NCBI RefSeq assembly: GCF_056746865.1
Contig: NZ_CM163382.1
Reading direction: 5' to 3' (one strand)
Length of the DNA stretch: 64,000 bases
The notes beneath the pieces are model-generated. The model saw nothing but the letters and a program-made list of their open reading frames with translations, had not been told where the DNA came from and searched no databases. Shown here piece after piece: positions 1 through 58,608 of the stretch. The stretch's first letter is position 1; every line of letters starts with the position of its first letter. A program made the position numbers and the translations under genes.

Positions 1-3000
1 GAAGCGGCAGTCTTTACTATTCACGGTTTTTGCCAGCGCATGCTCAACCTGAATGCCTTTGAATCCGGCATGCTGTTTGAGCAGCAGCTGATTGAAGATG
101 AGTCTCTGCTACGCTACCAGGCCTGCGCCGATTTCTGGCGTCGCCACTGCTACCCGCTGCCGCGTGAAATTGCCCAGGTCGTCTTTGAAACCTGGAAAGG
201 ACCGCAGGCGTTGCTGCGCGATATTAATCGTTATCTGCAAGGCGAAGCGCCGGTTATCAAAGCGCCGCCGCCCGATGATGAAACGCTGGCTTCCCGCCAC
301 GCGCAAATTGTGGCGCGTATTGATACGGTAAAACAGCAGTGGCGCGACGCGGTGGGTGAACTGGATGCGCTGATCGAATCTTCTGGTATTGATCGACGCA
401 AGTTTAACCGTAGCAATCAGGCTAAATGGATCGACAAGATCAGCGCCTGGGCAGAAGAAGAGACCAACAGTTATCAGTTACCGGAGTCGCTGGAAAAATT
501 CTCTCAGCGTTTCTTAGAAGATCGCACGAAAGCCGGGGGGGAAACCCCGCGACATCCACTGTTTGAGGCGATCGATCAACTGCTTGCAGAACCATTGTCG
601 ATCCGCGATCTGGTGATCACCCGCGCATTGGCTGAGATCCGCGAAACAGTAGCGCGTGAAAAACGCCGCCGTGGCGAATTGGGTTTTGATGACATGTTAA
701 GTCGGCTCGATTCCGCGCTGCGTAGCGAAAGCGGAGAGGTGTTGGCAGCGGCGATCCGTACGCGATTCCCGGTGGCAATGATCGATGAATTTCAGGATAC
801 CGACCCCCAGCAGTACCGAATTTTTCGCCGTATCTGGCACCATCAGCCGGAAACCGCATTGTTGCTGATTGGCGACCCGAAACAGGCCATATATGCATTC
901 CGGGGTGCGGATATCTTCACTTATATGAAGGCGCGTAGCGAAGTTCACGCCCACTACACTTTAGATACCAACTGGCGCTCCGCACCAGGAATGGTGAACA
1001 GCGTGAATAAGCTTTTCAGTCAGACTGATGACGCGTTCATGTTTCGCGAAATTCCTTTTATTCCAGTGAAATCAGCCGGGAAAAATCAGGCGTTACGTTT
1101 TGTGTTTAAAGGTGAAACGCAGCCTGCGATGAAAATGTGGCTGATGGAAGGCGAAAGCTGCGGCGTTGGCGACTATCAAAGTACCATGGCGCAGGTATGT
1201 GCTGCGCAAATCCGCGACTGGCTACAAGCCGGACAGCGGGGCGAAGCGTTGCTGATGAACGGCGACGACGCGCGTCCGGTGCGTGCTTCGGACATCAGTG
1301 TGCTGGTGCGCAGCCGCCAGGAGGCCGCTCAGGTGCGCGATGCCTTAACGCTGCTGGAAATCCCTTCCGTTTACCTTTCGAACCGCGACAGTGTTTTTGA
1401 AACTCTGGAAGCGCAGGAGATGCTTTGGCTGTTGCAGGCGGTGATGACTCCCGAACGTGAGAACACCCTGCGCAGTGCGCTGGCAACGTCAATGATGGGG
1501 CTGAATGCGCTGGATATTGAAACGCTGAATAATGACGAACATGCGTGGGATGCGGTAGTCGAAGAGTTCGATGGTTATCGGCAAATCTGGCGCAAACGTG
1601 GCGTTATGCCGATGCTGCGGGCGCTGATGTCGGCGCGTAACATTGCTGAAAACTTGCTGGCAACGGCAGGCGGTGAGCGGCGTCTTACCGATATCTTGCA
1701 TATCAGCGAACTGCTACAAGAAGCCGGAACGCAGCTGGAAAGTGAACATGCGCTGGTACGCTGGTTATCGCAACATATCCTCGAGCCAGACAGTAATGCC
1801 TCCAGCCAACAAATGCGCCTCGAAAGTGATAAACATCTGGTGCAGATTGTCACGATCCATAAATCAAAAGGGCTGGAATATCCGCTGGTCTGGTTGCCAT
1901 TTATTACCAATTTCCGCGTCCAGGATCAGGCGTTCTATCACGATCGCCACTCGTTTGAGGCTGTTCTGGATCTTAACGCTGCGCCAGAAAGTGTCGATCT
2001 CGCGGAGGCCGAACGTCTGGCGGAAGATCTGCGTTTGCTTTACGTGGCGCTGACGCGTTCGGTTTGGCATTGCAGTCTCGGCGTTGCACCGCTGGTGCGC
2101 CGTCGTGGCGATAAAAAAGGTGACACCGACGTCCACCAAAGTGCGCTCGGGCGTTTGCTGCAAAAAGGGGAACCGCAAGATGCGGCAGGACTTCGCACCT
2201 GTATTGAAGCGTTATGCGATGATGATATTGCCTGGCAAACGGCACAAACGGGTGATAACCAGCCCTGGCAGGTTAATGATGCTATAACTGCAGAACTGAA
2301 TGCGAGGACACTACAACGATTGCCCGGCGATAACTGGCGTGTCACCAGCTACTCCGGTTTGCAGCAGCGTGGTCACGGTATCGCTCAGGATCTGATGCCA
2401 CGGCTGGATGTTGATGCCGCAGGCGTGGTCAGCGTCGTTGAAGAACCGACGTTAACACCGCATCAGTTCCCGCGCGGTGCGTCACCGGGGACATTCTTGC
2501 ACAGTTTGTTTGAAGACCTCGATTTTACCCAGCCGGTTGACCCGAACTGGGTACAGGAAAAACTGGAACTCGGCGGCTTTGAATCGCAGTGGGAACCGGT
2601 GTTGACCGAGTGGATCACGGCTGTCCTCCAGGCACCTCTCAATGAAACGGGTGTTAGCCTGAGTCAGCTTTCCGACCGCGATAAACAGGTGGAGATGGAG
2701 TTTTACCTGCCGATTAGTGAACCGCTCATCGCCAGCCAGCTTGATGCACTAATTCGCCAGTTTGATCCGCTATCCGCTGGCTGCCCGCCGCTGGAGTTCA
2801 TGCAGGTACGCGGCATGTTAAAAGGCTTTATCGACCTGGTATTCCGCCACGAAGGGCGTTATTACCTGCTCGACTATAAATCCAACTGGCTGGGTGAAGA
2901 CAGTTCGGCTTACACCCAACAGGCTATGGCAGCGGCGATGCAGGCACACCGCTATGATCTGCAATATCAGCTTTATACCCTGGCGCTGCACCGTTATCTG

Positions 3001-7955: not shown

Positions 7956-8032
<77 letters not shown>

Positions 8033-8064
8033 TCACCGTACTGCTTTATTTCATCAAATTTGAT

Positions 8065-8141
<77 letters not shown>

Positions 8142-8174
8142 TCACCGTACTGCTTTACTTCATCAAATTTTAAT

Positions 8175-8251
<77 letters not shown>

Positions 8252-9645: not shown

Positions 9646-9742
9646 GCCGGATGCGGCGTGAACGCCTTATCCGGCCTACAAATCATGCAAATCCAAAATA
9701 TTGCAGGAGTTATGTAGGCCTGATAAGCGTAGCGCATCAGGC
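9646..9742. repeat. REP/BIME cluster (two REP palindromes)
   Basis: gccggatgcggcgtgaacgccttatccggcctaca and gtaggcctgataagcgtagcgcatcaggc, typical enterobacterial REP units. Confidence 0.6.
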
Positions 9743-9795: not shown

Positions 9796-10602
9796 ATGTC
9801 TGTGGTAATTAGTGATGCATGGCGTCAGCGTTTTGGCGGCACTGCGCGTCTGTATGGTGAAAAAGCGCTGCAACTGTTTGCCGATGCACATATTTGTGTG
9901 GTGGGTATTGGCGGTGTCGGTTCCTGGGCGGCGGAAGCGCTGGCGCGCACAGGGATTGGCGCAATCACGCTTATCGATATGGATGATGTGTGCGTCACCA
10001 ATACCAATCGGCAAATTCATGCCCTGCGCGATAACGTTGGGCTGGCAAAAGCGGAAGTTATGGCGGAGCGTATTCGCCAGATTAACCCGGAGTGCCGTGT
10101 AACGGTGGTGGATGATTTCGTGACGCCGGATAACGTAGCGCAGTATATGAGCGTGGGTTATTCGTACGTGATTGATGCCATTGATAGTGTACGGCCCAAA
10201 GCGGCGCTGATTGCTTATTGTCGGCGCAATAAAATCCCGCTGGTCACGACTGGTGGCGCGGGTGGGCAGATTGACCCGACGCAGATTCAGGTTACCGATC
10301 TGGCGAAAACGATTCAGGACCCGCTGGCGGCGAAGTTGCGTGAGCGCCTGAAAAGCGATTTTGGCATAGTGAAAAACAGTAAAGGTAAGCTCGGCGTGGA
10401 TTGCGTGTTCTCTACCGAAGCATTGGTGTACCCGCAGTCAGACGGTACGGTGTGTGCTATGAAAGCCACGGCGGAAGGGCCGAAGCGGATGGATTGTGCA
10501 TCTGGATTTGGCGCGGCGACGATGGTGACCGCCACCTTTGGTTTTGTTGCGGTTTCTCATGCGCTGAAGAAGATGATGGCGAAAGCGGCCCGTCAGGGGT
10601 AA
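9796..10602 (+). CDS. tcdA: tRNA threonylcarbamoyladenosine dehydratase (E1-like, ThiF/MoeB fold)
   Basis: 268-aa ORF with GIGGVGS nucleotide-binding motif; adjacent to csdE/csdA. Confidence 0.9.
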   Translation: MSVVISDAWRQRFGGTARLYGEKALQLFADAHICVVGIGGVGSWAAEALARTGIGAITLIDMDDVCVTNTNRQIHALRDNVGLAKAEVMAERIRQINPECRVTVVDDFVTPDNVAQYMSVGYSYVIDAIDSVRPKAALIAYCRRNKIPLVTTGGAGGQIDPTQIQVTDLAKTIQDPLAAKLRERLKSDFGIVKNSKGKLGVDCVFSTEALVYPQSDGTVCAMKATAEGPKRMDCASGFGAATMVTATFGFVAVSHALKKMMAKAARQG

Positions 10603-12489: not shown

Positions 12490-12720
12490 ATGATGAAAAA
12501 GACTGCCGCAATTATTTCTGCCTGTATGCTGACTTTTGCCCTGAGCGCCTGTTCCGGTTCGAACTATGTGATGCACACCAATGACGGACGTACCATCGTC
12601 TCTGACGGCAAGCCACAGACTGATAACGATACCGGTATGATTTCGTATAAAGACGCTAATGGCAACAAACAGCAGATCAACCGTACCGACGTGAAAGAGA
12701 TGGTCGAACTGGATCAGTAA
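12490..12720 (+). CDS. ygdI: Small lipoprotein YgdI (DUF903 family)
   Basis: 76-aa ORF with lipobox LSAC, preceded by AAGGAGAAG Shine-Dalgarno. Confidence 0.85.
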
Positions 12721-12736
12721 TTCGCGATCGCAAGGT

Positions 12737-12944
12737 AAAAAAAAAGCACCGCAATTAGGCGGTGCTACATTAATCACTATGGACAGACAGGGTAAATGTA
12801 CAGGAAGTGAAAAAAGGTAGCTTTGCTACCATGGTCTGAATCGCAGACCAATTGCAAACACAACAACACAACATCACAACCGTAAGCCAAAAGTTCACCA
12901 GAACACGCATTCCGATAAAACTTTTCGTTCCGGCTCAGGAAGTG
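12737..12944 (-). ncRNA. gcvB: GcvB small regulatory RNA
   Basis: Minus strand reads ACTTCCTGAGCCGGAACGAAAAGTTTTATCGGAATGCGTGTTCTGGTGAACTTTTGGCTTACGGTTGTGATGTTGTGTTGTTGTG... ending in hairpin GCACCGCCTAATTGCGGTGC plus T-run; GU-rich targeting region present; divergent from gcvA. Confidence 0.85.
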
Positions 12945-13071
12945 CCGCCACTATAGGTATTTGCTGGTAGAAGCTCAACGGACAATTTATAATGGCTCAG
13001 ATTAAAAAAACTAATAGGTTACACAGCGTGATCTAATTGTTAAATTCATTTAACATCAAAGTTTAAAAGCC
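12945..13071. promoter_or_regulatory. Divergent gcvB/gcvA promoter region (candidate gcvB -10 TATAGT and -35 TTGAGC on the minus strand; candidate gcvA -10 TATAAT at 12988-12993)
   Basis: Hexamers read directly from sequence; exact transcription starts not determined. Confidence 0.45.
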
Positions 13072-13989
13072 ATGTCTAAACGATTACCACCGCTAAATGC
13101 CTTACGAGTTTTTGATGCCGCAGCACGCCATTTAAGTTTCACTCGCGCAGCAGAAGAGCTTTTTGTGACCCAGGCCGCAGTAAGTCATCAAATCAAGTCT
13201 CTTGAGGATTTTTTGGGGCTAAAACTGTTCCGCCGCCGTAATCGTTCACTCCTGCTGACCGAGGAAGGGCAAAGCTATTTCCTCGATATCAAAGAGATAT
13301 TTTCGCAATTAACCGAAGCGACGCGTAAACTCCAGGCCCGTAGCGCCAAGGGGGCGTTGACGGTCAGTTTACTCCCCAGTTTCGCCATTCATTGGTTGGT
13401 TCCGCGACTTTCCAGCTTTAATTCAGCTTATCCGGGAATTGACGTTCGAATCCAGGCGGTTGATCGTCAGGAAGATAAGCTGGCGGATGATGTTGATGTG
13501 GCGATATTTTATGGTCGGGGCAACTGGCCGGGGCTACGGGTGGAAAAACTTTACGCCGAATATTTATTGCCGGTGTGTTCGCCGCTACTGCTGACTGGCG
13601 AAAAACCCTTGAAGACCCCGGAAGATCTGGCTAAACATACGTTATTACATGATGCGTCACGCCGTGACTGGCAGACATATACCCGACAGTTGGGGTTAAA
13701 TCATATCAACGTTCAGCAAGGGCCAATTTTTAGCCATAGCGCCATGGTGCTGCAAGCGGCTATCCACGGGCAGGGAGTGGCGCTGGCAAATAACGTGATG
13801 GCGCAATCTGAAATTGAGGCCGGACGTCTTGTTTGCCCGTTTAATGATGTTCTGGTCAGTAAAAACGCTTTTTATCTGGTTTGTCATGACAGCCAGGCAG
13901 AACTGGGTAAAATAGCCGCCTTTCGCCAATGGATCCTGGCGAAAGCCGCTGCTGAACAAGAAAAATTCCGCTTTCGTTATGAACAATAA
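13072..13989 (+). CDS. gcvA: LysR-family glycine cleavage system transcriptional activator
   Basis: 305-aa ORF with N-terminal LysR-type helix-turn-helix. Confidence 0.95.
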   Translation: MSKRLPPLNALRVFDAAARHLSFTRAAEELFVTQAAVSHQIKSLEDFLGLKLFRRRNRSLLLTEEGQSYFLDIKEIFSQLTEATRKLQARSAKGALTVSLLPSFAIHWLVPRLSSFNSAYPGIDVRIQAVDRQEDKLADDVDVAIFYGRGNWPGLRVEKLYAEYLLPVCSPLLLTGEKPLKTPEDLAKHTLLHDASRRDWQTYTRQLGLNHINVQQGPIFSHSAMVLQAAIHGQGVALANNVMAQSEIEAGRLVCPFNDVLVSKNAFYLVCHDSQAELGKIAAFRQWILAKAAAEQEKFRFRYEQ

Positions 13990-23792: not shown

Positions 23793-23826
23793 GCCGGATG
23801 CGACGCTAGCTGCGTCTTATCCGGCG
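23793..23826. repeat. REP element
   Basis: gccggatgcgacgctagctgcgtcttatccggcg palindrome between fucO and xni. Confidence 0.5.
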
Positions 23827-23878
23827 TATAAGTTCATTAAATTCAATGTGTTGATAATCGTTTGCATCCGGCACGCCG

Positions 23879-31163: not shown

Positions 31164-31530
31164 GTCGACAGGGAGTCAGACAACGAAGTGAACATCAGGA
31201 TGATGACACTTCTGAAGGACACACCAGGATGGTGTTTCAGGGAAAGGCTTCTGGATGAAGCGAAGAGGATGACGCAGGACGCGTTAAAGGACACCTCCAG
31301 GATGGAGAATGAGAACCGGTCAGGATGATTCGGTGGGTCAGGAAGGCCAGGGACACTTCAGGATGAAGTATCACATCGGGGTGGTGTGAGCAGGAAGCAA
31401 TAGTTCAGGATGAACGATTGGCCGCAAGGCCAGAGGAAAAGTTGTCAAGGATGAGCAGGGAGCAACAAAAGTAGCTGGAATGCTGCGAAACGAACCGGGA
31501 GCACTGTGAATACAGTGCTCCCTTTTTTTA
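31164..31530 (+). ncRNA. csrB: CsrB sRNA (CsrA-sequestering RNA)
   Basis: Begins GTCGACAGGGAGTCAGACAACGAAGTGAACATCAGGATGATG; many CAGGAUG/AGGA-type CsrA-binding motifs throughout; ends with a rho-independent terminator. Confidence 0.9.
31497..31529 (+). terminator. csrB rho-independent terminator
   Basis: gggagcactg-tgaata-cagtgctccc hairpin followed by TTTTTTT. Confidence 0.85.
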
Positions 31531-31574
31531 TTCCTGCTATTCTTCGCGGCAGTTTTTCTTATTGAGGTTGCTTT

Positions 31575-42075: not shown

Positions 42076-44310
42076 ATGGTTGCGGTAAGAAGTGCACATA
42101 TCAATAAGGCTGGTGAATTTGATCCGGAAAAATGGATCGCAAGTCTGGGTATTACCAGCCAGAAGTCGTGTGAGTGCTTAGCCGAAACCTGGGCGTATTG
42201 TCTGCAACAGACGCAGGGGCATCCGGATGCCAGTCTGTTATTGTGGCGTGGTGTTGAGATGGTGGAGATCCTCTCGACATTAAGTATGGACATTGACACG
42301 CTGCGGGCGGCGCTGCTGTTCCCTCTGGCGGATGCCAACGTAGTCAGCGAAGATGTGCTGCGTGAGAGCGTCGGTAAGTCGGTCGTTAACCTTATTCACG
42401 GCGTGCGTGATATGGCGGCGATCCGCCAGCTGAAAGCGACGCATACCGATTCTGTTTCCTCCGAGCAGGTCGATAACGTTCGCCGGATGTTATTGGCGAT
42501 GGTCGATGATTTTCGCTGCGTGGTCATCAAACTGGCAGAGCGTATTGCTCATCTGCGCGAAGTAAAAGACGCGCCGGAAGATGAACGCGTACTGGCGGCA
42601 AAAGAGTGCACCAATATCTACGCGCCGTTGGCGAACCGTCTTGGGATTGGACAACTGAAATGGGAGCTGGAAGATTACTGCTTCCGTTATCTCCACCCGA
42701 CCGAATACAAACGCATCGCAAAACTGCTGCATGAACGCCGTCTCGACCGCGAACACTATATCGAAGAGTTTGTCGGCCATCTGCGCGCTGAGATGAAAGC
42801 TGAAGGCGTTAAAGCTGAAGTGTATGGTCGACCGAAACACATCTACAGCATCTGGCGCAAAATGCAGAAAAAGAACCTCGCCTTCGATGAGCTGTTTGAT
42901 GTGCGTGCGGTACGTATTGTCGCCGAGCGTTTACAGGATTGTTATGCCGCACTGGGGATAGTGCACACTCACTATCGCCACCTGCCGGATGAGTTTGACG
43001 ATTACGTCGCTAACCCGAAACCAAACGGTTATCAGTCTATTCATACCGTGGTTCTGGGGCCGGGTGGAAAAACCGTTGAGATCCAAATCCGCACCAAACA
43101 GATGCATGAAGATGCAGAGTTGGGGGTTGCTGCGCACTGGAAATATAAAGAAGGCGCGGCAGCTGGCGGCGCACGTTCGGGACATGAAGACCGAATTGCC
43201 TGGCTGCGTAAACTGATTGCGTGGCAGGAAGAGATGGCTGATTCCGGCGAAATGCTCGACGAAGTACGCAGCCAGGTCTTTGACGACCGGGTGTACGTCT
43301 TTACGCCGAAAGGTGACGTCGTTGATTTGCCTGCGGGATCAACGCCGCTGGACTTCGCTTACCACATCCACAGTGATGTCGGGCACCGCTGCATCGGGGC
43401 AAAAATTGGCGGGCGCATTGTGCCGTTCACCTACCAGCTGCAGATGGGCGACCAGATTGAAATTATCACCCAGAAACAGCCGAACCCCAGCCGTGACTGG
43501 TTAAACCCAAACCTCGGTTACGTCACAACCAGCCGTGGGCGTTCGAAAATTCACGCCTGGTTCCGTAAACAGGACCGTGACAAAAACATTCTGGCTGGGC
43601 GGCAAATCCTTGACGACGAGCTGGAACATCTGGGGATCAGCCTGAAAGAAGCAGAAAAACATCTGCTGCCGCGTTACAACTTCAATGATGTCGACGAGTT
43701 GCTGGCGGCGATTGGTGGCGGGGATATCCGTCTCAATCAGATGGTGAACTTCCTGCAATCGCAATTTAATAAGCCGAGTGCCGAAGAGCAGGATGCCGCC
43801 GCGCTGAAGCAACTTCAGCAAAAAAGCTATACGCCGCAAAACCGCAGTAAAGATAACGGTCGTGTGGTGGTTGAAGGTGTCGGTAACCTGATGCACCACA
43901 TCGCGCGCTGCTGCCAGCCGATTCCTGGAGATGAGATTGTCGGCTTCATTACCCAGGGACGCGGTATTTCAGTACACCGCGCCGATTGCGAACAACTGGC
44001 GGAACTGCGCTCCCATGCGCCAGAACGTATTGTTGATGCGGTATGGGGCGAGAGCTACTCCGCCGGATATTCGCTGGTGGTCCGCGTGGTGGCTAATGAT
44101 CGTAGTGGGTTGTTACGTGATATCACGACCATTCTCGCCAACGAGAAGGTGAACGTACTTGGCGTTGCCAGCCGTAGCGACACCAAACAGCAACTGGCGA
44201 CCATCGACATGACCATTGAGATTTACAACCTGCAAGTGCTGGGCCGCGTGCTGGGTAAACTCAACCAGGTGCCGGATGTTATCGACGCGCGTCGGTTGCA
44301 CGGGAGTTAG
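42076..44310 (+). CDS. relA: GTP pyrophosphokinase, (p)ppGpp synthetase I
   Basis: 744-aa ORF ending ...VIDARRLHGS. Confidence 0.95.
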   Translation: MVAVRSAHINKAGEFDPEKWIASLGITSQKSCECLAETWAYCLQQTQGHPDASLLLWRGVEMVEILSTLSMDIDTLRAALLFPLADANVVSEDVLRESVGKSVVNLIHGVRDMAAIRQLKATHTDSVSSEQVDNVRRMLLAMVDDFRCVVIKLAERIAHLREVKDAPEDERVLAAKECTNIYAPLANRLGIGQLKWELEDYCFRYLHPTEYKRIAKLLHERRLDREHYIEEFVGHLRAEMKAEGVKAEVYGRPKHIYSIWRKMQKKNLAFDELFDVRAVRIVAERLQDCYAALGIVHTHYRHLPDEFDDYVANPKPNGYQSIHTVVLGPGGKTVEIQIRTKQMHEDAELGVAAHWKYKEGAAAGGARSGHEDRIAWLRKLIAWQEEMADSGEMLDEVRSQVFDDRVYVFTPKGDVVDLPAGSTPLDFAYHIHSDVGHRCIGAKIGGRIVPFTYQLQMGDQIEIITQKQPNPSRDWLNPNLGYVTTSRGRSKIHAWFRKQDRDKNILAGRQILDDELEHLGISLKEAEKHLLPRYNFNDVDELLAAIGGGDIRLNQMVNFLQSQFNKPSAEEQDAAALKQLQQKSYTPQNRSKDNGRVVVEGVGNLMHHIARCCQPIPGDEIVGFITQGRGISVHRADCEQLAELRSHAPERIVDAVWGESYSAGYSLVVRVVANDRSGLLRDITTILANEKVNVLGVASRSDTKQQLATIDMTIEIYNLQVLGRVLGKLNQVPDVIDARRLHGS

Positions 44311-44319
44311 TCTTACATA

Positions 44320-44347
44320 GCTGGATATGGCGTCAGCCGTATCCAGC
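44320..44347 (+). terminator. Hairpin downstream of relA
   Basis: gctggata ... tatccagc, 8-bp stem with 12-nt loop, followed by gatatctttt. Confidence 0.4.
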
Positions 44348-44405
44348 GATATCTTTTACTCGAAGGTATTACACCTGACAGACCCGCAATTTTCAGGACA
44401 TTCTA

Positions 44406-48506: not shown

Positions 48507-49424
48507 TTACCAGCGACCGGACGCGCCGCCACCGCCAGAAGAACCGCCCCCGCCGCTAAAGCCACCGCCTGAGCCTCCGCCACTTGAGCCGCCACCGGAA
48601 GAGGATGAAGAAGAACCTTTTCTTGAAGCTCTTTCTTTACCGAGCTTCTTGTATTTAGCGCGTAGCTTTTTATTAACGATAAGCCAAAAAATAAGCAGTG
48701 GTACGATGGCAAAAGGCGTGAGCATACCGCAGGCAACGATTAAATTGGTCCATGGTCCTGGCTCGGCAACATAGAGGAATACCATCCCGTAAATGGCGCC
48801 AGTGAGAGTGATCCAGGGTAAATTCGACGGATCGGTAAAAACAATAAAATATGAAAGTACCGCCAGCAATATAATTACAGCAAGCGATAATGGAATAAAG
48901 GGATTGATACTGTAATAATCCCCCCTGTCTTCCGATAATTCACCATTCAACAGAAGCGCGCCGATATTTTCGCTTGCCAGTGTTAATCCACCCATCAGGT
49001 CATCACTTTTGAAGGCAGGGATCAAAATATCTCTGATAATCTTCGCCGCTTGCAGGTCGGTAACCACCCCTTCCAGCCCGTAGCCAACCTCAATACGAAC
49101 AGCATGCTCCTCCCAGGCAACCAGAAGTAAAATACCATCGTTTCTCTGCTTATCTCCCAGTTTCCAGCTATCAAAAACGCGTGCTGCATATTGTTCAATG
49201 GAATCGTCTCCGGTGGACGGCACTACTAATACAGCGACCTGCGCCCGTGTTTTATGTGTAATATCCTGCAGCTGCTGCGTTAGCGATTGCTGTTCAGACG
49301 TGCTTAACGTACCAGTAATATCAGTCACTTGTTGGCGCAGCTCCGGCACAGCAATTTGCTGGGCAAGCCCGGGAAGGCTCCACAAAGCAAGTAGAATAAA
49401 GATTAAGCGCATTACGATCACCAA
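48507..49424 (-). CDS. TPM-domain (TLP18.3/Psb32/MOLO-1 family) membrane protein, paralog 1; ends in a Gly/Ser tail ...GGGGSSGGGGASGRW. Track start at 49424 is a TTG; the first ATG at 49412 (MRLIFILLALWSLPGLA) is the likelier start
   Basis: 305-aa track ORF: signal peptide, TPM domain, hydrophobic segments, low-complexity tail; adjacent to eno, the position of ygcG in K-12 as I recall it. Confidence 0.85.
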   Translation of the reverse strand: MVIVMRLIFILLALWSLPGLAQQIAVPELRQQVTDITGTLSTSEQQSLTQQLQDITHKTRAQVAVLVVPSTGDDSIEQYAARVFDSWKLGDKQRNDGILLLVAWEEHAVRIEVGYGLEGVVTDLQAAKIIRDILIPAFKSDDLMGGLTLASENIGALLLNGELSEDRGDYYSINPFIPLSLAVIILLAVLSYFIVFTDPSNLPWITLTGAIYGMVFLYVAEPGPWTNLIVACGMLTPFAIVPLLIFWLIVNKKLRAKYKKLGKERASRKGSSSSSSGGGSSGGGSGGGFSGGGGSSGGGGASGRW

Positions 49425-50566
49425 CGGCCGGATGAACCGCCGCCTCCTGAAGAACCGCCACCACCGCGGAAAGAATTTCTCGACGAAGAGCGAGAATGAG
49501 CATTACGATTCCCCGTTTTCCTGTTGCTTTTTTCTCCTGATCCCAGCTTAAGATTGCCAGTAAATTTGGCCACAATGATCAGCAGAACGATGCCAGCAAT
49601 GGTTATTGGGCCGATAAAATGATCAATTAACCCAATAATTGTTGAGATGAATGCAATATCTTTATTACTGGCGAACACCAGGCACCATCCCACAATAATT
49701 ATCAGCATCACGACAAACAATGAATTTCGTCCTGATTCACGAACCTGCGGAGTCTTCTTTTGTTTTTTCACTTTAGCGTTTTTATTTTTTGGGGTCAGCA
49801 TCATAGGAAATACGCGGCACATATTAAAAACTACCGCGAGACGCTGCTTGCAGGTTGTTGCTAACAATAAACTAAAACAAACGACCGATACCCGCCGAAT
49901 GATGACATCGTCCTGAAAGGAGAAAAACCAGACCATAGGGGTAATCATCGATATCATCCATATGCCACGCCCTGGGCGGCTGGCAAATCGCCAGAGGACA
50001 ACGATGGCAACGATCATCAGCAGTGTCCAGGCAAGACAAGGCAGCGAACGTTGCGGATTAGCAAACAGATGATTGGCTAAAGCATCCAAAGGGCTAAGGT
50101 TCGCTTTGATATGGGTAAACTGTGCGATGCTTTCAATTCCGCCCGTTAATCCAGCAAAGAGATTGTTTTTTTCGAATTCTGGCTGCATATGGTAACGAAC
50201 AATTTGCGAAGCTTGTTCCGGCGGCAACATCTGTTCCAGTCCATGTCCAATCTTCATTGACGCCAGCCCTTCCGGCCATACGACGAGAATTAAGATACCT
50301 TCGCCATATCGCTTCTCTCCAACGGGTTTCCAGTGATATACCCCGTATCTCTGCGAGGCTGCAAGTTTAATGTTTTTGCCCCCTGTGGTCGGCGTGACCA
50401 ACACGGCCACCTGGAAGTGGTTTTGCTGCTCGAGAGTCTGTAATTGTTGAGTTAAAGCAGTTTGTTCTTCTGTCGTTAATGTCCCGGTTAAGTCAGTTAC
50501 TGAAGGCAATTGTTCAGCGAATACCTGAAAACCGCATAGCATCAGAAGTAAGAGAAAAATACGCAT
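49418..50566 (-). CDS. TPM-domain-like membrane protein, paralog 2 (divergent, longer membrane region); ends ...GGGGSSGGGGSSGRW
   Basis: 382-aa ORF: signal peptide MRIFLLLLMLCGFQVFA, several hydrophobic segments, Lys-rich linker, Gly/Ser tail; stop lies 5 nt before the paralog 1 ATG. Confidence 0.8.
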   Translation of the reverse strand: MRIFLLLLMLCGFQVFAEQLPSVTDLTGTLTTEEQTALTQQLQTLEQQNHFQVAVLVTPTTGGKNIKLAASQRYGVYHWKPVGEKRYGEGILILVVWPEGLASMKIGHGLEQMLPPEQASQIVRYHMQPEFEKNNLFAGLTGGIESIAQFTHIKANLSPLDALANHLFANPQRSLPCLAWTLLMIVAIVVLWRFASRPGRGIWMISMITPMVWFFSFQDDVIIRRVSVVCFSLLLATTCKQRLAVVFNMCRVFPMMLTPKNKNAKVKKQKKTPQVRESGRNSLFVVMLIIIVGWCLVFASNKDIAFISTIIGLIDHFIGPITIAGIVLLIIVAKFTGNLKLGSGEKSNRKTGNRNAHSRSSSRNSFRGGGGSSGGGGSSGRW

Positions 50567-50580
50567 ATCAATTCCTTTTG

Positions 50581-51474
50581 TTACCAGCGCCCGGAAGCGC
50601 CACCGCCACCAGATGAACCGCCACCACCGCTGAAATTGTCATTGTTGAATGAAGAGGATGACGATGATGAATAGTGGGAGGAAGAATTGCTTCTTGTATG
50701 GCGTGATGGCTGGTTGGCATCACGCATCGAATCCCGAACCTTTTTGCCGAAGGGGGTAAAAGCGATGGCGACAGCCAGGAACGGTGTGGCGAAGCAGAGT
50801 AATGTTGCGAGTACTCCCCAGCTTCCGCTGAAGCCTGCTATAGGTAAAACAAAGGCCAGTACAATAGCTGCGAAGCAAATTACTCCCAGCGTTTTGATAT
50901 ATCCTCTGGCAGAAATAAACGTCAGTACTATCGCCCAGACTAACAAAGCCCACCAACCGCTAAAAGGCAAAGGGTGATCGGTCGGTGTTATCGTTGCTAA
51001 ATTATTCCCCGTCAGACGACTTTCAATATCGCTGATTCCCTTTTGCAAACCACCAGCCAGGTCCCCTTTTTTAAATGCCGGAATAATACTGTTGCGAATA
51101 ATTTTCCCGGACTGTGCATCCGTAATAATACCTTCCAGTCCGTAACCGATTTCAATACGCACGGTATGATCCTGCCAGGCGACTAACAGTAGAACGCCAT
51201 CATCGTGGTCTTTATCACCCGGTTTCCAGCTATCGAATACCCGCGTTGCGTACTGCTCGATGGTTTCATCGCCAGTTGTTTCAACCACTAACACGACCAA
51301 CTGTGCGTAGTTTTTTTGCGTCAGGGCTTTAATCTGGTTGGTCAGGGTGTTTACTTCGCTGTTTGTTAATGTGCCGGTTAAGTCATTCACATACTTGGGT
51401 GATTCAGGTACTGGAATTTGTGTGGCAAACACAGATGAACAGAAGAAAGCCATAAGGAAGATAAAATTTCGCAT
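50581..51474 (-). CDS. TPM-domain membrane protein, paralog 3; ends ...GGGGSSGGGGASGRW
   Basis: Track ORF 50581..51504; start taken at the ATG at 51474 (MRNFIFLMAFFCSSVFA), 13 nt after the LemA stop with a GGGGAAG Shine-Dalgarno-like sequence. Confidence 0.8.
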   Translation of the reverse strand: MRNFIFLMAFFCSSVFATQIPVPESPKYVNDLTGTLTNSEVNTLTNQIKALTQKNYAQLVVLVVETTGDETIEQYATRVFDSWKPGDKDHDDGVLLLVAWQDHTVRIEIGYGLEGIITDAQSGKIIRNSIIPAFKKGDLAGGLQKGISDIESRLTGNNLATITPTDHPLPFSGWWALLVWAIVLTFISARGYIKTLGVICFAAIVLAFVLPIAGFSGSWGVLATLLCFATPFLAVAIAFTPFGKKVRDSMRDANQPSRHTRSNSSSHYSSSSSSSFNNDNFSGGGGSSGGGGASGRW

Positions 51475-51487
51475 AGAACTTCCCCGC

Positions 51488-52090
51488 TTAATGAGCATTA
51501 GCATTCTGGCTAAAATCTATTGTTGGGGCTTTACTTACTGCGGCGACATCATCCGGCAAATAATTTTTCTTTGGTGTGTAATCCATGACCTTTGCGGTTA
51601 ACACAGCGGGGAATTTGCGGATAGTGACATTATATTGTTCAATGGCTTTAATATATCTTCCTCGCGCAACGGCAATCCGATTTTCACTTCCTTCAAGCTG
51701 TACCATTAAATTTTGATAGAGTTCCTGAGATTTTAACTCAGGGTAACGCTCACTAATTATCGTTAACTGACCGAGAGTGCGAGTCACCTGCGCTTGAGCC
51801 TGTTGCCAGGCTTGTAATTTTTGTTCATCGCCCGGAGTTTGCTGAAGATCGCTACTGGCGCGATTAGCCTGGCTACGAGCCAATGTTACGGCTTCCAGTA
51901 CATCTCGTTCATGGCTGGAATAACCTTTAATGCTGGCGACAAGATTAGGAATAAGATCGGCGCGACGTTGATATTGATTCAATACCTCAGACCAGGAGGC
52001 GTTAACCTGCTCATCATAGGTTTGAATATCGTTATATCCACAGCCTGATAAATTGAAAATAAATATAATTACGATGAATATTCTGAGCAT
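51488..52090 (-). CDS. LemA-family lipoprotein
   Basis: 200-aa ORF; N-terminus MLRIFIVIIFIFNLSGC has a lipobox (LSGC); LemA-like coiled region; first gene of the apparent LemA-TPM operon. Confidence 0.85.
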   Translation of the reverse strand: MLRIFIVIIFIFNLSGCGYNDIQTYDEQVNASWSEVLNQYQRRADLIPNLVASIKGYSSHERDVLEAVTLARSQANRASSDLQQTPGDEQKLQAWQQAQAQVTRTLGQLTIISERYPELKSQELYQNLMVQLEGSENRIAVARGRYIKAIEQYNVTIRKFPAVLTAKVMDYTPKKNYLPDDVAAVSKAPTIDFSQNANAH

Positions 52091-52262
52091 GTTTAAATCC
52101 CTTTTAATTAATTCCTTAAAACATAATACTCTGCTTCATTTTATTCTTTATGATCTAATCCACTTTTTGCCTTAAAACTGCCTGTAACAGAATGTTAATA
52201 AGACATGATTGTTGTGGCAGGATCTGCAATAATTAACAATTATCCACTTCACAGAGAATGCT

Positions 52263-52934
52263 ATGCAGTACCCGATTAACGAGATGTTCCAGACCCTGCA
52301 AGGTGAGGGTTACTTTACCGGCGTCCCCGCCATTTTTATTCGTTTACAGGGATGCCCGGTTGGCTGTGCCTGGTGCGACACCAAACACACCTGGGAAAAG
52401 CTTGAGGATCGGGAAGTCTCCCTTTTCAGCATTCTGGCGAAGACCAAAGAGAGTGATAAGTGGGGGGCGGCGAGCAGTGAAGACTTGCTGGCTGTCATTG
52501 GTCGCCAGGGATACACCGCGCGGCATGTGGTGATTACGGGTGGTGAGCCTTGCATTCATGATTTGCTGCCACTGACTGACCTGCTCGAAAAGAACGGTTT
52601 TAGCTGCCAGATCGAAACCAGTGGTACTCATGAGGTACGCTGCACACCGAATACCTGGGTTACCGTATCGCCAAAGCTGAACATGCGCGGCGGCTATGAA
52701 GTGTTGTCACAGGCACTGGAGCGAGCCAACGAAATCAAGCATCCAGTGGGACGCGTACGTGATATTGAAGCACTGGATGAACTTTTGGCGACGCTGACCG
52801 ATGATAAACCGCGAGTCATTGCACTGCAGCCGATTAGCCAAAAGGATGATGCCACACGATTGTGCATTGAAACCTGCATTGCTCGTAATTGGCGTTTGTC
52901 GATGCAAACACATAAATATCTAAATATTGCCTGA
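52263..52934 (+). CDS. queE: 7-carboxy-7-deazaguanine synthase (radical SAM)
   Basis: 223-aa ORF with Cys motif CPVGCAWCDT. Confidence 0.9.
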   Translation: MQYPINEMFQTLQGEGYFTGVPAIFIRLQGCPVGCAWCDTKHTWEKLEDREVSLFSILAKTKESDKWGAASSEDLLAVIGRQGYTARHVVITGGEPCIHDLLPLTDLLEKNGFSCQIETSGTHEVRCTPNTWVTVSPKLNMRGGYEVLSQALERANEIKHPVGRVRDIEALDELLATLTDDKPRVIALQPISQKDDATRLCIETCIARNWRLSMQTHKYLNIA

Positions 52935-53159
52935 TTAAACATTTATAAGCGTTATAAATGGGTGGAACCTGTAAAGATTTCTACTCATTTATATTGTTTG
53001 TCGCCTCTGAAAACTCCTCCATTTTACCCATCCAGGGCTAATCATTAGCATTCTCTACAAATTCTGCGGCATTAATTTTTCGCTGGAGTGAAAATTATTG
53101 CGGTAAAGTTTGGTAGATTTTAGTCGGTATAGGATTACTTTAAATATTTAGCTTTTCAA

Positions 53160-53273
53160 TCAATGGATTAAGTGCTCTTTAACATAATGGATGTGTTGTT
53201 TGTGTGATACTATAAAGTTGGTAGATTGTGACTGACTTAAAAAATCAATAATTAATAATAGGTTATGTTTAGT
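53160..53273 (+). promoter_or_regulatory. AT-rich CRISPR leader
   Basis: AT-rich tract immediately upstream of the first repeat, on the side opposite the degenerate terminal repeat. Confidence 0.5.
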
Positions 53274-53851
53274 GAGTTCCCCGCGCCAGCGGGGATAAAC
53301 CGTCTGGGCCGGATTCGATCCCGCGCGTACCGGAGAGTTCCCCGCGCCAGCGGGGATAAACCGTACAATCCCGCATCGAAACTGAATACCCCGATGAGTT
53401 CCCCGCGCCAGCGGGGATAAACCGTTGCCCAGGCTTTTGCGAAAATTTGTGATTTGGAGTTCCCCGCGCCAGCGGGGATAAACCGACACGGGGCAGATTG
53501 AGCAGGACTGCGACCTCGAGTTCCCCGCGCCAGCGGGGATAAACCGGCAGCAGATTTACAAACAGATCGGAGATTACTGAGTTCCCCGCGCCAGCGGGGA
53601 TAAACCGCGCGGCCTGCGCTCGCGTAAAATCAGTTGCAGGAGTTCCCCGCGCCAGCGGGGATAAACCGTCCGCGCAAGCCTATATAAACCAGATTGATCA
53701 GAGTTCCCCGCGCCAGCGGGGATAAACCGCGAAATCGCACGCGCTTCCCGCATGGGGGAAAGAGTTCCCCGCGCCAGCGGGGATAAACCGTGTAAAAGTC
53801 TTGGTTTTGGCGCATCATTTGTGAGTTCCCCGCGCCAGCGGGGATAAACCA
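53274..53851 (+). CRISPR. Type I-E CRISPR array: 10 repeats of 29 bp (GAGTTCCCCGCGCCAGCGGGGATAAACCG) and 9 spacers of 32 bp; the last repeat is degenerate at its 3' end
   Basis: Exact 61-bp periodicity; repeats start at 53274, 53335, 53396, 53457, 53518, 53579, 53640, 53701, 53762, 53823; no cas genes in the window. Confidence 0.95.
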
Positions 53852-54379
53852 CCATATAACCCGTTATCTCTTTCTCAAGTTTTTATATTAGCAGTACTCG
53901 TATTAAGCAATATATCCACGTAACACCTCATGTTCAAAATAGCTCTCCATATATGAGAAGTTCACAATTATCGATACAAAAAATCAAATTTAATTAAAGT
54001 GTTAGTTGTATGATACTTAAATCATTAAGAAATTATCATATATTATTTTTTTAATATTGAATTGATGTTTGTTAATTTTTTCTTTAGGATAGTAGTTTGT
54101 TTTTTAAGCTTATTATTCATTGATTAAGTAATAAATCTGGAAATTTGTCTTTGTTTTGAGGCTAATGAGTGGTTTTACATAATCGCCTCTATACGCTGTT
54201 GATGAATAGTTCTTATGAATAAAGATATCCAGTTCATACTTTAAGTGAAAATTGATAAAGTGCGATTCGTATTGTCTTTTATTCTAAATAGACTGGCCCC
54301 CTGAATCTCCAGACAACCAATATCACTTAAATAAGTGATAGTCTTAATACTAGTTTTTAGACTAGTCATTGGAGAGCAG

Positions 54380-54745
54380 ATGATTGATGTCTTAGGACCG
54401 GAGAAACGCAGACGGCGTACTACACAGGAAAAGATCGCTATTGTTCAGCAGAGTTTTGAACCGGGAATGACGGTCTCCCTTGTTGCCCGGCAACACGGTG
54501 TGGCAGCCAGCCAGTTATTTCTCTGGCGCAAGCAATACCAGGAGGGAAGTCTTACTGCTGTGGCCGCAGGAGAGCAGGTCGTTCCTGCCTCTGAACTTGC
54601 TGCTGCCATGAAGCAGATTAAAGAACTCCAGCGCCTGCTCGGCAAAAAAACGATGGAAAATGAACTCCTTAAAGAAGCCGTTGAATACGGGCGTGCAAAA
54701 AAGTGGATAGCGCACGCGCCCTTATTGCCCGGGGATGGGGAGTAA
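54380..54745 (+). CDS. insC: IS2 transposase OrfA (InsC), helix-turn-helix
   Basis: Track ORF 54335..54745; start taken at [13 protein letters not shown] (121 aa). Confidence 0.9.
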
Positions 54746-55608
54746 GCTTAGTCAGCCGTTGTCTCCGGGTGTCGCGTGCGCAGTTGCACGTCATTCTCAG
54801 ACGAACCGATGACTGGAAAGATGGTCGCCGCAGCCGTCACTCAGATGATACGGATGTGCTTCTCCGTATACACCATGTTATCGGAGAGCTGCCCACGTAT
54901 GGTTATCGTCGGGTATGGGCGCTGCTTCGCAGACAGGCCGAACTTGATGGTATGCCTGCGATCAATGCCAAACGTGTTTACCGGATCATGCGCCAGAATG
55001 CGCTGTTGCTTGAGCGAAAAACCGCTGTACCGCCATCGAAACGGGCACATACTGGCAAAGTGGCCGTGAAAGAAAGCAATCAACGATGGTGCTCTGACGG
55101 GTTCGAGTTCCGCTGTGATAACGGAGAAAAACTGCGAGTCACGTTCGCGCTGGACTGCTGTGACCGTGAGGCACTGCACTGGGCAGTCACTACGGGCGGC
55201 TTCGACAGTGAAACAGTACAGGACGTAATGCTGGGAGCGGTGGAACGCCGCTTCGGCAACGAGCTTCCGGCGTCTCCAGTAGAGTGGCTGACGGATAATG
55301 GTTCATGCTACCGGGCTAATGAAACACGGCAGTTTGCCCGGATGTTGGGGCTTGAACCGAAGAACACGGCGGTGCGGAGTCCGGAGAGTAACGGCATAGC
55401 AGAGAGCTTCGTGAAAACGATAAAGCGTGACTACATCAGTATCATGCCTAAACCAGACGGGTTAACGGCAGCAAAGAACCTTGCAGAGGCGTTCGAGCAT
55501 TATAACGAATGGCATCCGCATAGTGCACTGGGTTATCGCTCGCCACGGGAATATCTACGGCAGCGGGCCAGTAATGGGTTAAGTGATAACAGGTGTCTGG
55601 AAATATAG
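54703..55608 (+). CDS. insD: IS2 transposase OrfB (InsD), DDE catalytic domain; overlaps OrfA in the -1 frame (programmed frameshift arrangement)
   Basis: 301-aa ORF recognised as IS2 InsD. Confidence 0.9.
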
Positions 55609-55641
55609 GGGCAAATCCACTAAAGACATCGAGTGTAGTTA

Positions 55642-57330: not shown

Positions 57331-58608
57331 TTACTTGCTGCTAGCCATAGCAGGGGCGCTATCAGCAGTACGAATTTTTTGGAACAGCAAAAAGGTAAAG
57401 ACGATCACCATGGCAAGCGCCGCCATGCCCATCAGCCACATATTGCGGTAGGCTTCTGCAGCGGGCAGGGTGTCTTGCCAGTAGCCGATAATCGGGTAAA
57501 CGAAGACATCCGGCAGGAATCCAATCACCGAACAAATACCTACCGTGGTGCCCATAATGTAAGACGGTGTTCTCGCTTCGCCAGGGCAGGCCCAGTACAG
57601 CCCGCGTGAGGCGTAACAGGTGAATCCCAGCAGTAAAATCAGGCCAATCCCCATCGCGACCGATTGCGGGTTAGAGTTCGTGACGAGCAGGGCAGTTAAC
57701 GCCAGCAAGCCGAGTACGGAAAGGATTTGGATCACGCGGGTAGGGGATTTCACTTTGCTGTAGGTGGTGATAATGCCACCAAGTGGGCCGCACAGTGCGC
57801 GGAAGATTTTGTTGATCACAATCCCCATGTAGCTCGCCGCCACCAGCGACATGCCGTACATTTCGGTCAGATAGTTGGTGGAGTAACTCAGAATGGCGTA
57901 GATGGTGAAGACACCAAAAATCACCATGCTGCAATACCAGGTGGTGCTGATGCGCAAAACAGCCAGGATGTCGCTAAGCTGGAATGACTGTTTTTCTTCG
58001 TTATTGGTATTGCGCAGGTTGTTGTTATCGCTAACAAAAAACCAACACAAAATGCCCAGCAGAATGTAAACCACACTATAGATAATAATGACCGTTTTCA
58101 GGCTGGCGCTGTCATCCGGTGCAAAGCGAGAAAAGACCCACATGGTAAACACCGCCAGCGACATTACACCGACGCCGCGCAGCCCTTCCATCCAGCCCAT
58201 AATTTTCCCTTGCTCGCTATGATCGCCCAGCAACGAGGCGGCTTTAATCGACACCGACCACAGCATTAAAATCGTCGTTATCGCAAAGGCGACCTGAATA
58301 CAGAGCATTACCCACAGCGGTGGATATGTTGCCATTAACAGACCCAGTAATCCGGTAATGATCATCGCGGAAGTAATCATTTTGCGGTGTGAAAATTTAT
58401 CGGCAATAACGCCGCTGGGGGCATAAAGAATAATAGCCGCAATACCAAAGGTACTCATTATTAAACCTATCTCGGTATTGCTGAATCCCATAAATTTCGC
58501 CATGGGAATTTGATAAATATAACGTAAATAAGCCAGGTCGAAACTAACGCCGCCGCTAAAACTAATTATCGCGAGGGTTATCCAACGGCGATATGAGTTG
58601 TGTTGCAT
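57331..58608 (-). CDS. yqcE: MFS transporter
   Basis: 425-aa polytopic membrane ORF. Confidence 0.9.
   Translation of the reverse strand: MQHNSYRRWITLAIISFSGGVSFDLAYLRYIYQIPMAKFMGFSNTEIGLIMSTFGIAAIILYAPSGVIADKFSHRKMITSAMIITGLLGLLMATYPPLWVMLCIQVAFAITTILMLWSVSIKAASLLGDHSEQGKIMGWMEGLRGVGVMSLAVFTMWVFSRFAPDDSASLKTVIIIYSVVYILLGILCWFFVSDNNNLRNTNNEEKQSFQLSDILAVLRISTTWYCSMVIFGVFTIYAILSYSTNYLTEMYGMSLVAASYMGIVINKIFRALCGPLGGIITTYSKVKSPTRVIQILSVLGLLALTALLVTNSNPQSVAMGIGLILLLGFTCYASRGLYWACPGEARTPSYIMGTTVGICSVIGFLPDVFVYPIIGYWQDTLPAAEAYRNMWLMGMAALAMVIVFTFLLFQKIRTADSAPAMASSK

Follow-up and report, generated by a model that had tools for sequence, protein, structure and literature searches.

The small RNA GcvB and the gene of its activator, GcvA, form a divergent pair with overlapping promoters, and a 48-bp GcvA DNase I footprint has been mapped in their intergenic region (PMC5002191). 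The GcvA motifs described there are CTAAT and ATTA-N7-TAAT, with one inverted repeat (IR1) at -65 and another (IR2) at -43 from the gcvB start; GcvA bound at IR1 represses the promoter of its own gene (PMC5002191). A recent addition to the activators of gcvB is OxyR, and ArcA is listed among the known regulators of gcvB (PMC12266141). According to PMC1557403, which cites Urbanowski et al. 2000, two terminators, t1 and t2, yield 130-nt and 206-nt products, about 90% of transcripts stopping at t1 and 10% at t2, and repression of oppA and dppA is said to need the 206-nt form. GcvB requires Hfq (PMC3658693). R1 is its main target-pairing region and R3 lies in stem-loop SL4; GcvB uses R1 or R3, rarely R2, on more than 50 mRNAs, its targets being amino-acid and peptide transporters and metabolic enzymes, and the RNA SroC pairs with it at SL1 and SL4 and triggers its decay by RNase E (PMC9299463).

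We analyzed a stretch of 64,000 nucleotides from contig NZ_CM163382.1 (assembly GCF_056746865.1), hereafter the window. Interval 12737..13071 is, almost beyond doubt, the E. coli gcvB gene together with the shared gcvA-gcvB control region, operating by the published GcvA/Hfq mechanism. When the whole window was compared with all Rfam models, the GcvB family (RF00022) matched 12738..12943 on the minus strand with 199.0 bits, against a gathering score of 42 (E = 1.1e-46). This match covers model positions 1-204 of 204 and is not truncated. Alignment to the curated K-12 record showed 0 substitutions in the 206-nt body relative to K-12 gcvB (b4443); the RNA differs only by a ninth T in the t2 tail, where K-12 has 8. 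The RNA is thus 206 nt long, or 207 nt if the ninth T (12737) is transcribed. Its minimum free energy (MFE) is -62.1 kcal/mol, compared to a mean of -47.1 for shuffled sequences (z = -3.6), and 0 of 200 dinucleotide shuffles were as stable. These results bear out a reading made from the sequence only, which had proposed a minus-strand non-coding GcvB gene and named the covariance model as a check; the strand was right, but its length of about 208 nt was not. That reading also described the gene as missed by ORF calling, which is trivially true. The locus itself holds nothing new: it is the known gcvB gene with its known LysR-type divergent promoter architecture. Family membership, identity to K-12, conservation across genera and the anatomy of the locus are direct observations, and the elements that we could place are the following (numbers in nt refer to GcvB).

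12738..12943, minus strand: gcvB gene, encoding the 206-nt GcvB sRNA (full-length RF00022 match and identity to K-12 b4443).
12943, minus strand: gcvB +1 (A); the 3' U-run may reach 12737 in the analyzed strain.
12937..12883, minus strand: SL1 (nt 7-61), from the Rfam structure line and the MFE fold, with compensatory changes at 3 pairs across genera.
12881..12855, minus strand: R1 (nt 63-89), the G/U-rich seed GGUUGUGAUGUUGUGUUGUUGUGUUUG, which the Rfam consensus leaves unpaired between SL1 and SL2.
12849..12833, minus strand: SL2 (nt 95-111), GGUCUG-CGAUU-CAGACC, from the Rfam structure and the MFE fold.
12830..12816, minus strand: SL3, the stem of the internal intrinsic terminator t1 (nt 114-128), from the terminator scan.
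12815..12810, minus strand: U6 of t1 (nt 129-134), from the terminator scan.
12809..12797, minus strand: R2, CACUUCCUGUACA (nt 135-147), upper-case in the Rfam consensus and single-stranded; R2 is described in PMC9299463.
12799..12767, minus strand: SL4 (nt 145-177), which contains seed R3 and the other of the two sites of SroC pairing (Rfam structure; PMC9299463).
12766..12745, minus strand: SL5, the stem of terminator t2 (nt 178-199), from the terminator scan.
12744..12737, minus strand: U-run of t2 (from nt 200), 9 T here and 8 in K-12 (alignment).
12950..12978, minus strand: gcvB sigma-70 promoter, with -35 TTGAGC (12978..12973), a 17-bp spacer and -10 TATAGT (12955..12950), from the promoter scan.
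12979..12993, no strand: IR2, the weaker GcvA site, centered at 12986, about -43 from the gcvB start (position from PMC5002191).
12988..12993, plus strand: putative gcvA -10, a perfect TATAAT, from our own scan and invariant across genera.
13001..13015, no strand: IR1, the GcvA site ATTAAAAAAACTAAT (ATTA-N7-TAAT, containing CTAAT), from the pattern match and the published position and motif (PMC5002191).
13072..13989, plus strand: gcvA, the gene of the LysR-type protein that activates gcvB and regulates gcvTHP (ORF, Pfam and RefSeq annotation).

The 22-nt G/U-rich string quoted as the seed, GTTGTGATGTTGTGTTGTTGTG, has one exact match in the window, at 12859..12880 on the minus strand and inside R1, and none in 100 shuffles even with 2 mismatches permitted. 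Relative to the Rfam consensus, the E. coli R1 carries an 8-nt insertion (uuguguug). The R2 element CACUUCCUGU was found 3' of SL3. The consensus scan of the minus strand detected two intrinsic terminators, the internal t1, followed by T6, and the terminal t2, whose hairpin AGCACCGCCTAATTGCGGTGCT has 8 pairs, of which 6 are G-C, and is followed by a T-run. The terminal hairpin announced for the minus strand is therefore present at 12745..12766 with its U-run, and SL5 and this U-run are the expected Hfq-binding 3' module. Neither of the two outcomes that the sequence-only reading had named as refuting it, a missing covariance-model match and a missing terminator on the minus strand, was obtained.

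The divergent neighbor was correctly recognized as gcvA. Its ORF (305 aa) carries the Pfam domains HTH_1 and LysR_substrate, and the RefSeq name is gcvA. The control region between the two genes (12944..13071) exists as described but measures 128 bp instead of 127 bp; its length is the same in K-12, where the curated record places the ncRNA gcvB at 2942696..2942901 and gcvA at 2941650..2942567 on the opposite strand. The gcvB promoter matches the sigma-70 consensus at 9 of 12 positions and is correctly positioned for a start at 12943. On the gcvA side, the -35 is poor (CTGGTA, with an 18-bp spacer to TATAAT; -35 region about 12964..12969). If TATAAT at 12988..12993 is the gcvA -10, transcription of gcvA would start near 13000, adjacent to IR1, with a leader of about 72 nt, and the two starts would lie about 57 bp apart. 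With this arrangement, the gcvB -35 (12973..12978) falls inside the putative gcvA promoter spacer and the gcvA -35 region falls inside the gcvB spacer. The overlap of promoters claimed for this region fits both this layout and the published description (PMC5002191).

The center of IR1, at 13008, lies exactly at -65 from the gcvB start. The ATTA-N7-TAAT pattern, which is of the T-N11-A type, is by itself not rare, with 0.9 chance matches expected per window, so the evidence for IR1 is its position and its conservation. Only the right half of IR2 (ATAAT) resembles the GcvA motif here; this site borders directly on the gcvB -35 and shares positions with the putative gcvA -10. A 48-bp GcvA footprint around the gcvA start would cover both repeats, the position of its edges being deduced from that of the start. 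Lrp sites had also been suggested at the gcvB promoter. This suggestion found no support, since the literature on gcvB control that we searched did not yield Lrp as a regulator there: the regulators named are GcvA, GcvR, ArcA and OxyR (PMC12266141, PMC9299463), and lrp appears as a GcvB target via R3, not as a regulator of gcvB (PMC9299463).

The window is colinear with K-12 MG1655, in reverse orientation, from recB to ygcR. Over 23.8 kb aligned around the locus, the difference from K-12 is 1.75%, a rate at which about 3.6 changes are expected in 206 nt. Zero changes in the GcvB body are thus mild evidence that the RNA is under purifying selection. The spacer carries 3 substitutions, all on the gcvA-leader side, at 13024 and 13027 (both C for T) and at 13067 (A for T). 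These positions belong to a poorly conserved part of the spacer and lie outside every mapped element. The exact allele is common to other strains, for example the urine isolate 118UI.

A megablast search with 12650..13150 showed that 5425 of the 5426 complete E. coli genomes examined carry the locus, at 99% identity or more in 5259. In the analysis of variation within the species, 5311 of the 5425 genomes reached at least 99% identity, which is too little variation for covariation to be used within E. coli. In one record, NZ_CP195093.1 (laboratory strain TUM1509), a transposase gene of the IS4-like element ISVsa5 (IS10-type) lies at 1779..2987 between ygdI and gcvA. This insertion splits gcvB near window position 12819 and represents a natural or laboratory gcvB disruption.

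Orthologues from other genera were obtained by a sensitive search of a plasmid collection (PLSDB), which returned nine records. They measure 0.57-5.4 Mb and carry the chromosomal rlmM-ygdD-gcvA-gcvB-ygdI-csdA neighborhood, and are apparently complete or partial chromosomes deposited under a plasmid label; the sole "plasmid" place in the E. coli genome search is probably an artefact of the same kind. These records give no evidence of a plasmid-borne gcvB. The comparison set comprised five loci (n = 5), from the E. coli window, Salmonella enterica, Klebsiella pneumoniae, K. aerogenes and Proteus mirabilis. The four loci outside E. coli all give full-length RF00022 matches of 155-190 bits, each beside a divergent gcvA; the Proteus gcvA ORF is 85% identical to the GcvA of the window.

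In the five-way alignment, the gcvB start and first nucleotides are invariant, as are the TTGA of the gcvB -35, the block AAATACCTATAGT that includes the gcvB -10 (and the upstream AAATACC), the block CATTATAA, which is the complement of the gcvA -10, and IR1 (TATTAGTTTTTTT-AT). Within the RNA, the same holds for R2, for the interior of SL4 and for the two arms of the t2 stem. E. coli, Salmonella and the two Klebsiella species have the same R1. The beginning of the Proteus R1 is altered by the deletion of 7 nt and by substitutions, and the distal part GTTGTGTTTGCAA is all of R1 that the five loci have in common. Conservation is lowest in the gcvA leader. RNAalifold applied to the five orthologues confirmed SL1, SL2, SL4 and SL5, with compensatory changes at three pairs of SL1. 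An additional pairing in its output, between part of R1 and the t1 region, is not credible and conflicts with Rfam and with the structure in the literature; as five sequences do not suffice to settle the point, we relied on the Rfam model.

Other explanations of the interval have to be weighed against this evidence. Inside GcvB, an AUG at nt 34 opens a 46-codon ORF (12910..12770, minus strand), and the transcript could be a small mRNA whose ORF is translated, either protein-coding or dual-function. This AUG sits in the apical loop of SL1, however, without a spaced Shine-Dalgarno sequence. In Proteus, the SL1 loop changes from ATGCGTG to GTAGTA-, so that the start of the ORF is not conserved. 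GcvB is, moreover, not translated according to PMC1557403, citing Urbanowski et al. The 46-aa ORF was rejected as a coding gene for these reasons (AUG in a loop, no Shine-Dalgarno sequence, unconserved start and literature), and we consider a translated GcvB to be extremely improbable. Similarly, the hairpins could form the 3' end or terminator of the convergent gene ygdI (12490..12720, plus strand), the rest being non-functional intergenic DNA that resembles GcvB by chance. Only 17 nt separate the end of ygdI from that of GcvB, and the t2 hairpin has enough palindromic character to form on both strands. On the plus strand, however, no T-run follows this hairpin and the scan found no plus-strand terminator there. 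A full-length match of 199 bits combined with 100% identity to a characterized gene makes chance resemblance impossible, and conservation spans all 206 nt and the promoter as well. The probability of this explanation is practically nil.

It could also be proposed that gcvB is present but differently regulated in this lineage, through the three gcvA-leader substitutions and the longer U-tail. The differences from K-12 are real, and the allele recurs in other strains as indicated above. The substitutions nevertheless spare IR1, IR2 and the two promoters and fall where the spacer is least conserved, and a U9 tail in place of U8 still makes a canonical terminator; a change of regulation on these grounds seems very unlikely. 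We thus retain the reading of the interval as gcvB with the GcvA-controlled region that it shares with gcvA.

Since this GcvB does not differ in its body from that of K-12, the mechanism described for K-12 should carry over; control by glycine, GcvA and GcvR, dependence on Hfq, the targets and the SroC sponge are all known from published work on the identical K-12 sequence. According to this model, gcvB would be transcribed leftward from 12943 by sigma-70 RNA polymerase, and the transcript would end either at t1 (about 130 nt) or at t2 (206-207 nt). When glycine is plentiful, GcvA would bind the inverted repeat at -65 and the weaker site at about -43 and activate gcvB; the bound protein would also cover the gcvA promoter, leading to repression of gcvA. 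When glycine is scarce, GcvA together with GcvR would repress gcvB. Full-length GcvB is predicted to bind Hfq and to pair, through seeds R1, R2 and R3 (in SL4), with C/A-rich sites at or near ribosome-binding sites. Such pairing would repress more than 50 mRNAs, mostly encoding amino-acid and peptide transporters and amino-acid biosynthetic enzymes. Pairing of the sponge RNA SroC with SL1 and SL4 would lead to decay of GcvB by RNase E.

One gene of the window was considered as an additional candidate target. The gene yqcE, encoding a putative MFS transporter, starts with ATG CAA CAC AAC (58597..58608, minus strand), and its codons 2-4, CAACACAAC (58605..58597, minus strand), are a perfect complement of the R1 core GUUGUGUUG. 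Among the 42 initiation regions tested in the window, that of yqcE gave the best predicted duplex with R1, whose energy of -25.9 kcal/mol exceeds the 1st percentile of shuffles. A set of 42 genes should contain about 0.4 such matches by chance, and yqcE is not significant after correction for multiple testing. None of the papers searched links yqcE to GcvB. It is therefore unlikely, on the strength of this predicted duplex, that yqcE is an unrecognized R1 target of GcvB.

Several other features of the window were recorded. A second sRNA, CsrB, is present at full length at 31173..31532 on the plus strand (RF00018, 382.9 bits) and matches K-12 csrB between syd and yqcC. As the sequence-only reading called GcvB a second non-coding gene, CsrB is presumably the one that it counted first. 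Three tandem identical tRNA matches of 61.4 bits each, at 7959..8251 on the minus strand, correspond to K-12 metZ-metW-metV (initiator tRNA-Met). A match to RF02751, ES036 (CssrF), with 46.5 bits against a gathering score of 37.6, was found at 9679..9721 on the plus strand, between mltA and tcdA and a short distance upstream of the latter (9796..10602).

The remaining observations are departures from K-12. Between relA and mazG (44310..44364), mazE-mazF are absent, about 690 bp of K-12 being replaced by about 54 bp with a short inverted repeat, GCTGGATATGGCGTCAGCCGTATCCAGC. At 48507..52090 on the minus strand lies a cluster of four genes, one for a LemA-family protein of 200 aa and three for proteins with a TPM domain (307, 382 and 305 aa). 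The corresponding place in K-12 is occupied by ygcG/yqcG alone, about 0.9 kb compared to about 3.5 kb here. The queE region (52056..54288) is 83-89% identical to K-12 with many gaps, whereas identity is about 98% elsewhere in the window. An insertion of about 1.3 kb relative to K-12 (54289..55620) carries an IS3-family transposase pair, with ORFs at 54335..54745 and 54703..55608 on the plus strand; orfA contains an HTH_Tnp_1 domain and orfB contains rve, rve_3 and HTH_21 domains. Between ygdG (xni) and fucO, about 50 bp at 23815..23866, possibly a REP-type element, are missing from K-12.

The gcvB locus matters little as a discovery, and the practical point that it raises is an omission in annotation. 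No gcvB feature lies under the match in any of the 60 listed PGAP RefSeq records of E. coli, nor in NZ_CP032515.1, and the record with the identical sequence carries no ncRNA feature at gcvB. The curated K-12 record annotates "ncRNA gcvB, b4443, small regulatory RNA GcvB" and is the only record examined that names the gene. Because PGAP omits gcvB, pipelines based on ORFs or on RefSeq annotation see a seemingly empty gap of 350 bp. The sequence-only reading nonetheless shows that a known sRNA can be recognized from the raw DNA, the elements that it described being present at the coordinates that it gave or within 1-2 nt of them.

Compared with K-12 gcvB (b4443), the locus has the same 206-nt body, 128-bp spacer, promoter hexamers, GcvA site, R1, R2 and R3 and two terminators, and it differs in the U-run (9 here versus 8) and at the three leader positions 13024, 13027 and 13067. 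With the GcvB genes of Salmonella, Klebsiella and Proteus, it shares the full-length RF00022 match, the divergent gcvA and the invariance of R2, the SL4 interior, IR1 and both -10 hexamers, whereas variation, in part compensatory, is seen in SL1, in the loops of SL2 and t2 and in the t1 stem. Proteus GcvB differs further by additional bases between the t1 stem and the U-run and by the altered start of R1.

Among LysR-type systems, gcvA-gcvB resembles metR-metE, oxyR-oxyS and ilvY-ilvC, in which the regulator and its target gene are likewise divergent with interleaved promoters. In such pairs, the inverted repeat of high affinity is located near -65 of the target promoter and overlaps the promoter of the regulator, which leads to autorepression (PMC5002191); with the putative gcvA -10 at 12988..12993, IR1 would have this relation to gcvA. 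In contrast to pairs whose target is a protein gene, the target of GcvA is here a small RNA, as in oxyR-oxyS, and the gcvA-gcvB region contains only two inverted repeats instead of three (PMC5002191).
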